A DNA stretch of 64,000 nt from Bdellovibrionales bacterium (GTDB lineage Bacteria > Bdellovibrionota > Bdellovibrionia > Bdellovibrionales > UBA1609), in assembly GCA_023301025.1 (NCBI GenBank), contig JALZUR010000010.1:17791-81790 (forward strand), in the 5' to 3' direction. Both the position numbers and the translations under genes were made by a program. This document shows positions 49,878-52,085 of the stretch, in pieces. Under the pieces are notes generated by a model that saw nothing but the letters and a program-made list of their open reading frames with translations, was not told the origin of the DNA and did no database searches. Numbering within the stretch: position 1 is the stretch's first letter; each line of letters opens with the position of its first letter.

Positions 49878-50339
49878 ATGAAATCTAATCCACTTTTTCA
49901 TGACTCTTCTGTGTCTCAAGATTCTAATGTTCAAACAAAGTTTGAGCTTATGGGACTTAAGACCTTTAACGGAGACAGGGTTTTTATGCGTTTAAATTTA
50001 AACGATGAAAATACGTTTTATGAAATGAGTTATAACGAAGACAGTGATTTTTATGAAACTTCTGTGTGGTTGAAACACAGAAGAGAGCTAAGTTATAATT
50101 TTTTAGTAAAGCGGGGAGACGATTGGGTGTCAGCTAGTCCTCAAAAAGAGGGACACGCTATGCACTCCATACTTGATCATTGGTTCGCTCTAAGTGATCT
50201 AGAGTTTAAAGAAGAGCTTGGCTTTATAGAAAAAAAAGTTGAATCTTCAAAGACTATTGAACTTGAAGAAACTGAAGCTAAAGGTTCTTCAAATGAAGAA
50301 GAGTTTTTTGATAACCTTATAAAAAAATGGGACCTTTAG
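49878..50339 (+). CDS. Hypothetical protein, possible E-set/CBM48-like beta-sandwich with acidic tail
   Basis: The ATG directly abuts the parA-like stop. FEL..G..VFMRLN...YEM...FYETSVWL...SYNFLV..GDDWV pattern. The C-terminus is acidic. Confidence 0.5.
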   Translation: MKSNPLFHDSSVSQDSNVQTKFELMGLKTFNGDRVFMRLNLNDENTFYEMSYNEDSDFYETSVWLKHRRELSYNFLVKRGDDWVSASPQKEGHAMHSILDHWFALSDLEFKEELGFIEKKVESSKTIELEETEAKGSSNEEEFFDNLIKKWDL

Positions 50340-50354
50340 AAGGTCCATTTTTTT
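50330..50354. terminator. Rho-independent terminator between convergent genes
   Basis: GGACCT-TTAGA-AGGTCC hairpin, then A and seven T. It overlaps the TAG stop. Confidence 0.65.
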
Positions 50355-51597
50355 AGATTAGTTTTATTTATCTGTTTTTAAAATCAAATTTAAAATTTAT
50401 TCTGCCAAACAGCCAATGCGTTTGTCTGAAATTGCAAAGTTGTCAAAAGATGCATAGGTGTCTTTTGTTGGTGCCCAGCTTTGGCTATTCCCGCCATAAA
50501 ATGTACTAAAATACATTGAACCAATTTTTGTATCTCTGTTGTTTACAGTTCTAAATAAGGCATCACTGACATCAACGCTTAAATCTCCATTAAACCATGC
50601 TCTTATTTTTCCGTTTGTTTGACCTATTTGATTAAGTTCAATGTACTGTTCTAAACAGTGCCATTTGTTAACATCAACAAAAGTCTTAACCCCAGGATTT
50701 TCATAAAATACAAAGTCATATCCGTAAGCTTTTTTATGCTTTCCATCTAAATAACCATAAACAACAAGCGAATTGTTAGCTCTCCACATATATCTTGTGC
50801 TCCATCCGTTTGTACCGTTTGCTTGAATTCCTCCAGTAATACTTTGAGCTCCAGCACTTGCTAGACCTGGAAGTTTTCCTCCTAAAACAAACTCCCAACC
50901 AGGATGAAATTTAACGTAGTATCTTAAGTAAAGAGAGTCTCTTAAGCCCACACCAATATCTTCAAGCTCTGTTCTAAACTGAACTCTTGAAGAGCCACTA
51001 AGTGTGTTAGTAAGTGCACCAACTCTTTTTGGGTATTTAACCTTTAAGGCTCTTCCACTAAATGCATCATTAGCATTGGTAGAAAGTTAACTAAAGCCGG
51101 CAGGGAAACTGGACCATTTTAAACCCCAGTAAGATTTAAATGTTTGGCTTCCTGTTACACCTTCAATATTTTCAAAACCTCCGTGAAAGAGAAGATCTGG
51201 GTTGTTTGCGTCACTTGGTTTTGGTGGTGGTGCAATTGTTTTTAAAACTGTTAGCTGAAATGAGCATCTTACGAGTTCATTATTTGAGTTTGGAGTGCCA
51301 TAGGTAAAGTTTGCTACTCCTCCAGCTGTACTCGGTTGGTATATGTATCTGTTAGTAACTCCACCGGAGCTAGCATTACTTGAGTTAAAAACCTCAGAAC
51401 CTAAATCTACATCTAAACGACTTTCAACAGGAACGTTATCTCCTAAGTAGTTTTGTTGTGAGTCGACAAAATCTACATAAATAGAATGTGCACCTTCGTT
51501 GCTATCAATTGTAGTGACTAAGGTTTGGTCTTGTCCGTTACTATTTAGTGTATAGGCTTTAATGTTTTGTAAGTTACAATTTAGAACACGTGTGACA

Positions 51598-51657
51598 GGT
51601 GCAGGTGCAGGTGTAGGTGTAGGTGTAGGTGTAGGTGTAGGTGTAGGTGTAGGTGCC
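51598..51657. repeat. Hexanucleotide tandem repeat encoding the (Thr-Pro)n linker
   Basis: GGTGCA x2, GGTGTA x7 (51610-51651), then GGTGCC. On the minus strand this translates as APTPTPTPTPTPTPTPAPAP. Confidence 0.9.
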
Positions 51658-51809
51658 ACTTCTTCTTGAGTTACAATAGAGGGTAAAGATTCAGACTCTG
51701 CTTCAGAAGTACTATCTTCTATATTTAGCGAATTAAAATTTTTTATAGACTCCACTTGAGTGCACGATAAACTTAGAGATATTAAAAGCCCTAGTATTGC
51801 AATGTTCAA

Positions 51810-51819
51810 TTTTTTTTTT
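51810..51819 (-). repeat. Homopolymeric A10 tract (T10 on + strand) immediately after the start codon
   Basis: Counted directly: T at 51810 plus nine T at 51811-51819. The minus strand reads ATG-A10-TTGAACATT. Confidence 0.9.
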
Positions 51820-51884
51820 CATTTTACCCCTACCTAAAATTGGACTTGCTTCTGATTAGTTTTTTTAGGCTATAAGCCGAACAG

Positions 51885-51909
51885 TAGTTTTCTCACTTTG
51901 AGAAAACTA
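51885..51909. promoter_or_regulatory. Perfect 11-bp inverted repeat (candidate operator) upstream of the lipoprotein gene
   Basis: TAGTTTTCTCA-CTT-TGAGAAAACTA. Confidence 0.4.
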
Positions 51910-52020
51910 AAAGCAATAGCAAACATTTATAGTGCTTATTCGGATCAAATTGACTATTACTAAAAGATTTGAGTGCTTAAAAATAAGAAAGTTAAAGCTA
52001 ATAAGGTTTAAATGACCTAA

Positions 52021-52052
52021 TAAAAAAAGAGCAATACTTTATATTGCTCTCT
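52021..52052 (-). terminator. Rho-independent terminator of the FadL-like gene
   Basis: AGAGCAATA / TATTGCTCT stem, followed by a T-run on the minus strand. Confidence 0.65.
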
Positions 52053-52085
52053 TAAGTTCAAATAATAAATTAAGTTTTTAGCCTA

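Follow-up and report, generated by a model that had tools for sequence, protein, structure and literature searches.

The closest described counterparts of the locus analysed here are surface-protein and lipoprotein genes with a poly(A) run at their 5' ends. In Listeria monocytogenes inlA, a one-base change in the 5' poly(A) run leaves only a very short product from the wrong frame, strains with frameshifted alleles exist alongside strains with in-frame ones, and the measured rate of reversion is about 1000 times that of point mutation; an excess of poly(A)/poly(T) tracts at gene 5' ends is also general among prokaryotes (Orsi, Bowen & Wiedmann 2010, PMC2831843). In Mycoplasma hominis, the vaa gene undergoes poly-A phase variation, switching at 10^-3 to 10^-4 with both states observed (Zhang & Wise 1997, as summarised in PMC524362).

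Here, we analysed a 64,000-nucleotide stretch of DNA (the window) from a draft genome of a Bdellovibrionales-like bacterium (2.03 Mb, 34.5% GC, 55 contigs, probably a metagenome-assembled genome). Mycoplasmas lack mismatch repair of the MutS/MutL type. In the AT-rich reduced genomes of Blochmannia and Buchnera, poly(A)-tract frameshifts reportedly occur, with possible rescue by transcriptional slippage. The original prediction for the window, made from its sequence, was that an A10 tract near the start of a lipoprotein gene acts as a slipped-strand phase-variation switch. Our comparison with orthologs, homologs and further assemblies instead indicates that the locus is probably an accessory PL14 lipoprotein gene, specific to its lineage, that two lesions have recently inactivated in an uncultured Bdellovibrionales-like host.

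The start region and its ortholog in a sister species

On the minus strand, the start region reads AGGGG-TAAA-ATG-A10-TTG, with the ATG at 51822-51820, the A10 tract at 51819-51810 and the TTG at 51809-51807. The window letters around the start are ...TAGGTAGGGGTAAA ATG AAAAAAAAAA TTG AAC ATT GCA... and, with longer 5' context, ...TTTTAGGTAGGGGTAAA-ATG-AAAAAAAAAA-TTG-AAC-ATT-GCA.... The features of this region are the following.

51827-51831, minus strand: Shine-Dalgarno (SD)-like AGGGG, beginning at -9 of the ATG and kept in the ortholog L019 as CAGGGGTAAAATG
51820-51822, minus strand: ancestral ATG start of the PL14 lipoprotein gene; in frame in L019, here no longer in frame with the ORF
51810-51819, minus strand: A10 homopolymer (C10:69600-69609 of the draft genome), 10 nt against 9 in the ortholog (AAA ACA AAA), a +1 frameshift
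51733-51822, minus strand: 29-codon out-of-frame ORF from the ATG in the A10 state (MKKKIEHCNTRAFNISKFIVHSSGVYKKF, then stop), from the ORF listing and its translation

The sequence and its frames agree with the first part of the original prediction, in which A10 directly follows an SD-equipped ATG and leaves the long ORF out of frame. The tract, described there as the longest homopolymer in the window, is indeed its sole A/T run of at least 10 nt, and the ATG frame, expected to terminate after about 30 codons, does so after 29, at a stop at 51735-51733. In the A10 state, the sole possible start of the long ORF is the TTG at 51809, as had been proposed, and its product lacks the Lys n-region. 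AGGGG begins at -9 relative to the ATG and at -22 relative to the TTG, so that of the two only the ATG is equipped as a start. The organism makes wide use of such sites: GGAG, GAGG or AGGA begins at -15 to -7 in 491 of 1499 long ORFs, against 83 in the background sample, and the SD position peaks at -11 genome-wide, with -9 still common.

Judging by a search with the neighbouring DAACS transporter protein, the genome belongs with uncultured Bdellovibrionales-like bacteria. The same search retrieved a protein of 96% identity on a JGI metagenome contig of 4.9 kb (L019), where the gene order is as in the window (crcB, DAACS, a cupredoxin-like gene and fadL) and where the first 73 codons of the same PL14 lipoprotein gene lie 3' of fadL. 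The L019 gene starts with GGGGTAAA-ATG-AAA-ACA-AAA-TTA, which is in frame and translated as MKTKLNISILVLLMSLNLSC (with longer 5' context, CAGGGGTAAA-ATG-AAA-ACA-AAA-TTA-AAC-ATC...). Its SD and ATG are identical to those of the window, 9 nt separate the ATG from the Leu codon, and the gene caller chose the same ATG as start. Since the ortholog is in frame, this comparison identifies the ATG at 51822-51820 as the authentic start of the PL14 lipoprotein gene, with an in-frame spacing of 9 nt that A10 exceeds by one base (+1 frameshift). The proposal that nine A would be the in-frame state is thereby upheld.

At the tract, the ortholog carries A4CA4 (AAAACAAAA), which is broken by a C and non-slippery. 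Either A9 or A4CA4 may be the ancestral state. L019 is about 88% identical to the window at the nucleotide level, and the flanking genes show 86-96% protein and 80-89% nucleotide identity with a dS of about 0.6; therefore, L019 represents a sister species. Over the first 70 codons, dN/dS between the two is 0.35, compared with 0.04-0.09 in neighbouring genes, a difference that we regard as uninformative, signal peptides and linkers evolving fast anyway. The L019 ortholog is known for these first 73 codons: a whole-protein search of metagenome contigs returned only a 30% identity match, the C-terminal half, used as a protein query, gave no close ortholog besides the window's own ORF, and an exact-pattern scan of the genome and metagenome contigs with the tract flanks and a variable gap gave no match.

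In the ancestral gene, translation was thus initiated at the SD-equipped ATG, followed by 9 nt and then Leu. In the window lineage, all 9 nt are A and one extra A, presumably added by replication slippage in the homopolymer, results in A10 and the +1 frameshift; the tract was maybe uninterrupted only after a C>A change. Ribosomes starting from the ATG therefore yield a 29-residue out-of-frame peptide.

The reading frame and the stop codon ahead of the lyase domain

From the TTG, the ORF frame extends from 51809 to 50397 (471 codons) and is interrupted by one internal TAA at 51089-51087. The gene and its surroundings are composed as follows.

52053-52025: terminator-like hairpin after fadL
51087-51809, minus strand: N-terminal ORF with a remnant signal peptide, a (Thr-Pro)n linker and an N-terminal module, open for 240 codons and ending at the in-frame TAA
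51598-51657, minus strand: hexanucleotide (CCTACA)7 and related array, encoding the TP/AP linker, with a copy number that varies between assemblies
51087-51089, minus strand: in-frame TAA nonsense codon, aligned with Gln in the two closest homologs
50397-51086, minus strand: PL14 (PF21294) catalytic-domain region, in the same frame as the N-terminal ORF, with its normal stop at 50399-50397
50330-50346, minus strand: terminator-like hairpin and then a T run, after the PL14 gene

The two hairpins flank the gene, which therefore forms its own transcription unit. Within the N-terminal ORF, a lipobox-like LSLSC is found, with the Cys codon at 51764-51762. Lipoprotein precursor features, judged by eye against a PROSITE PS51257-type rule (charged n-region, hydrophobic h-region and lipobox Cys), are present both in the ancestral frame (MKKK-LNIAILGLLISL-SLSC) and in L019 (MKTK-LNISILVLLMSL-NLSC). 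Toward the C-terminus, residues 251-458 match Pfam PF21294 over model positions 5-215 of 215 (131.8 bits with a cut-off of 27, E = 3.8e-38), and all 31 of the family-invariant residues of the PL14 domain are kept in the alignment with the closest homologs. PL14 homologs are secreted or lipoprotein-type. The gene had been described as the precursor of a lipoprotein-type glycan-degrading enzyme, with which the PL14 match and the L019 signal peptide agree, the enzymatic role being predicted from sequence.

The TAA sits 10 codons ahead of the first Pfam-matched residue of this domain. Its column reads Gln in the homologs P0002 (57% identity) and P0003 (51%), the third aligned homolog being 44% identical, and because the two closest homologs agree, a single CAA>TAA change at 51089-51087 is the presumed origin of the stop. 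We also considered an alternative code with TAA as a sense codon and rejected it, as the gene's terminator-proximal stop is also TAA and the coding density under table 11 is normal. Past the TAA, the next possible start (GTG 50951) would lose about 36 domain residues and all export signals. The nonsense codon is thus a second, independent lesion at a position that is Gln in the closest homologs, cutting the frame just before the catalytic domain. With A9 restored, the signal peptide would return, but the TAA would still end the frame at codon 245, ahead of the catalytic domain, and a functional lyase would be expected in no tract state.

Two elements lie in the spacer upstream of the gene, the first of which is a palindrome.

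51885-51909, no strand assigned: inverted repeat whose arms are 11 bp long, some 65-85 nt upstream of the ATG

The arms of this repeat read AGTTTTCTCA-AAG-TGAGAAAACT in the window and AGGTTTCTCA-TTA-TGAGAAACCT in L019, which holds a perfect 10-bp palindrome despite changes on both arms. That the palindrome is kept through these changes suggests a functional operator or RNA hairpin. A block of about 28 nt (ATCCGAATAAGCACTATAAATGTTTG, window positions ~51919-51946) in the fadL-PL14 spacer is nearly invariant between the window and L019. The spacer around it has diverged, the intergenic alignment being 85% identical overall, and the block is probably a promoter or regulator site of the lyase gene.

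The conserved palindrome, together with the retention of all family-invariant residues and the lack of any other visible lesion, points to a recent inactivation. The same observations can be counted against the pseudogene reading, since a pristine catalytic domain behind a conserved palindrome implies either that the gene was functional until very recently or that some expression persists. Such residual expression in the A10 state could proceed from the TTG at 51809, or through transcriptional or ribosomal slippage, and would deliver an N-terminal lipoprotein module of 240-244 aa with a function of its own. RNA polymerase is known to slip, and ribosomes to slide, on runs of at least nine A; all 240 codons of the N-terminal ORF are open; and the 28-nt block is conserved along with the palindrome. 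However, we consider this scenario quite unlikely for the following reasons: (i) the TTG has no SD at a usable distance and its product would have no Lys n-region, while ribosomes loaded at the strong ATG would pass the TTG in another frame; (ii) the N-terminal module has few distant relatives, the best of which (P0177-P0179 and P0185) carry it N-terminally in proteins of 300-400 aa with further domains, and the relatives included no conspicuous family of standalone proteins of about 240 aa; and (iii) the arrangement is derived and not common to L019. The conservation expected of programmed slippage or recoding is likewise missing, as neither the slippery tract nor the out-of-frame layout is shared with the in-frame, non-slippery L019 gene.

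Tract length among assemblies and across the genome

Same-species assemblies were found by exact-protein look-up with FadL and the 184-aa C-terminal ORF. They comprise an ENA metagenome scaffold (L021/L024, 156.8 kb) and contigs from Logan SRR17046542 (L022 and L025) and Logan SRR17046543 (L026), which are probably from one study or habitat and not independent isolates. At the level of consensus sequences, which represent the majority allele only, A10 and thus the +1 frameshift is identical in all three assemblies covering the tract (window, L021 and L022), and the TAA is present in all four that cover it (window, L021/L024, L025 and L026). Both lesion sites are intact in relatives, with the start in frame in L019 and Gln at the TAA position in P0002 and P0003. 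L022 is identical to the window across 1762 nt. L021, compared over 7.2 kb, has one SNP relative to the window and lacks 18 bp of the hexanucleotide array; it is therefore a distinct consensus and not a mere copy.

The (CCTACA)n array has seven units in the window and four in L021, a three-unit deletion, while the Logan contigs of the two runs break inside the array and SRR17046543 shows an A>G at 51614. This length difference is either real in-frame variation or an assembly repeat collapse. The neighbouring microsatellite varies among assemblies and the A10 homopolymer does not. Comparison of tract lengths, which had been suggested as a check on phase variation, accordingly revealed no length polymorphism at the consensus level (A10 in 3/3). 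Two considerations nevertheless count against the pseudogene reading here: consensus assemblies may leave room for a minority A9 or A11 subpopulation, and A10 is intrinsically slip-prone, so that reversion could physically take place in the DNA or in the RNA.

Errors classically occur at homopolymers, and in a 55-contig draft, probably metagenome-assembled, the extra A, the TAA or both might be sequencing or assembly errors, with the gene intact in the organism. This is extremely unlikely, as the window genome, the ENA scaffold and a Logan contig agree on A10, four assemblies agree on the TAA, and a substitution error giving TAA in every assembly is implausible. Furthermore, about 130 other A/T tracts of at least 9 nt lie inside ORFs of at least 90 codons, and all of these ORFs stay open, from which it follows that the homopolymer lengths of the assembly are reliable.

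Across the genome, there are 155 A/T tracts of 9 nt and 15 of at least 10. The latter are under-represented (15 observed, about 38 expected from base composition), and runs of exactly 8 exceed expectation about 3.7-fold and runs of exactly 9 about 2-fold, a run-length spectrum that looks like selection against tracts longer than 9. The length of the A10 tract alone is within chance; its unusual feature is placement, as it is the only one of 171 A/T tracts of at least 9 nt that separates an SD-bearing start codon from its ORF. Scanning the genome for other 5'-proximal A/T tracts of at least 9 nt, also suggested as a check, brought up none that disrupts a start or an ORF. When ORF fusion by a one-base indel was sought at all homopolymers, only ordinary gene junctions at runs of 5-8 nt appeared, and nothing at runs of at least 9. 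A folD-like housekeeping gene has an A10 close to its 5' end (G000:C20:6777-6786) and yet an intact ORF; in this genome, A10 is therefore neither a contingency mark nor a systematic assembly error. The MutS and MutL genes are intact, and the M48 peptidase matches in the genome are open in four of four cases. Pseudogenes appear rare in this organism, given its intact mismatch repair and high coding density.

These results bear most directly on the reading first proposed, a contingency locus in which the A tract switches between A9 (ON) and A10 (OFF) by slipped-strand mispairing, with phase variation of a surface lyase in the population. A 10-nt homopolymer does lie right after a lipoprotein start, A9 would restore the ancestral frame, and of the roughly 130 coding A/T tracts of at least 9 nt, 25 fall within the first 15 codons, which is an enrichment. 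The layout is also that of the 5' poly(A) of Listeria inlA (PMC2831843) and of the poly-A of Mycoplasma hominis vaa (PMC524362). Against this stand the single tract length in three assemblies, even though the adjacent hexanucleotide array varies, the interrupted tract of L019, the fixed TAA, which leaves the ON state without a catalytic domain, the absence from the genome of any other homopolymer-disrupted start, the presence of mismatch repair and the genome-wide scarcity of A/T tracts of at least 10 nt. Among four testable defining features of a contingency locus, we found one, the simple-sequence tract in an ORF, and three were absent. It is therefore unlikely that the locus is such a switch, and the slipped-strand mechanism of the original prediction was not sustained. 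That prediction had itself described a fixed A10 combined with the downstream TAA as plain pseudogene decay, and this is the combination seen in the available assemblies.

A variant of this idea is that the tract is a newborn hypermutable switch, created when a C>A change fused two A4 runs, with minority A9 (plus CAA) cells or rescue by RNA-polymerase slippage. If true, a contingency locus would here be seen at the moment of its birth, and in an uncultured Bdellovibrionales-like bacterium that is free-living or predatory; to our knowledge, no phase variation has been reported from this group. We regard it as very unlikely.

Other simple-sequence runs were observed in the genome. A G10 tract on the coding strand (G000:C5:68888-68897) lies in frame mid-way in an intact 404-aa ORF, which has a lipoprotein-like N-terminus and a C-terminal end that resembles, by eye only, the S74-type intramolecular chaperone domain of tail fibres. 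By a rough estimate, a genome of 34.5% GC should contain only about 0.1 G/C runs of 10, and for this reason the G10 is a better slippage-switch candidate than the A10. At G000:C9:17192-17213, a composite A8-G9-T6 run adjoins a hairpin (GCCGGTCTTACGACACGGC) just upstream of a 254-codon minus-strand open frame.

The PL14 lipoprotein gene is single copy in the genome and was absent from the four other species of the genus in which it was sought. In one of these genomes (G002), the flanking synteny is kept (PilZ, ParA, ParA partner, fadL, cupredoxin-like gene and DAACS), with two small ORFs in the slot. The slot between the ParA-partner gene and fadL is variable in the genus (window 50340-52085, L018 6987-7667): it contains the PL14 gene in the window and in the BBAY81 sister species and two small unrelated ORFs in G002, and in G001 the synteny is broken at this point. 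A search for FadL relatives in the genome contigs found none.

Implications and comparison with known systems

Taken as a pseudogene, the locus has direct consequences for annotation. The called ORFs at 51087-51809 (or from GTG 51755) and 50397-50951 would be the halves of one dead PL14 lipoprotein gene, and neither half should be counted as functional glycan-degrading capacity. More generally, the locus would illustrate, with an ortholog as anchor, the loss of an accessory gene from an AT-rich genome, through a homopolymer in a Lys-rich n-region, a one-base slip and then a nonsense mutation. It also shows how weakly a long A run near the start of a gene argues for a contingency locus when the genome is 65% A+T. 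If read data showed length heterogeneity, this would be a modestly interesting case of phase variation outside host-associated bacteria. On the present comparisons, however, the locus looks like an ordinary pseudogene, a dying gene rather than an on/off switch.

With respect to gene architecture, the C-terminal 230 residues match the PF21294 model of bacterial PL14 lyases end to end. The closest PL14 homologs carry FN3-like or other modules, whereas the window gene carries its N-terminal module and TP linker instead. Unlike its bacterial PL14 lyase homologs, the window gene is disrupted.

With inlA, the window gene shares a poly(A) run within the opening codons of a gene for a surface protein, and the 5' A/T tract excess in its genome is comparable to that reported with inlA (PMC2831843). 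It differs from inlA in that the locus shows one length only, the sister species has no such tract, and reversion would achieve nothing in the presence of a second fixed lesion. The likeness to vaa (PMC524362) consists of a lipoprotein or adhesin gene with a 5' poly-A that is in frame at one length and out of frame with one base more or less. The window locus differs in showing no ON allele, and its genome has MutS and MutL.

A further comparison is with ordinary unitary pseudogenes, in which homopolymer slippage is combined with nonsense mutation; the poly(A)-tract frameshifts reported from Blochmannia and Buchnera belong among them. Here, the likeness comprises an AT-rich small genome, a +1 poly(A) indel, an extra stop and an otherwise intact gene. 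The difference lies in the organism, since the window bacterium is free-living or predatory rather than an obligate endosymbiont, with intact mismatch repair and a high coding density.
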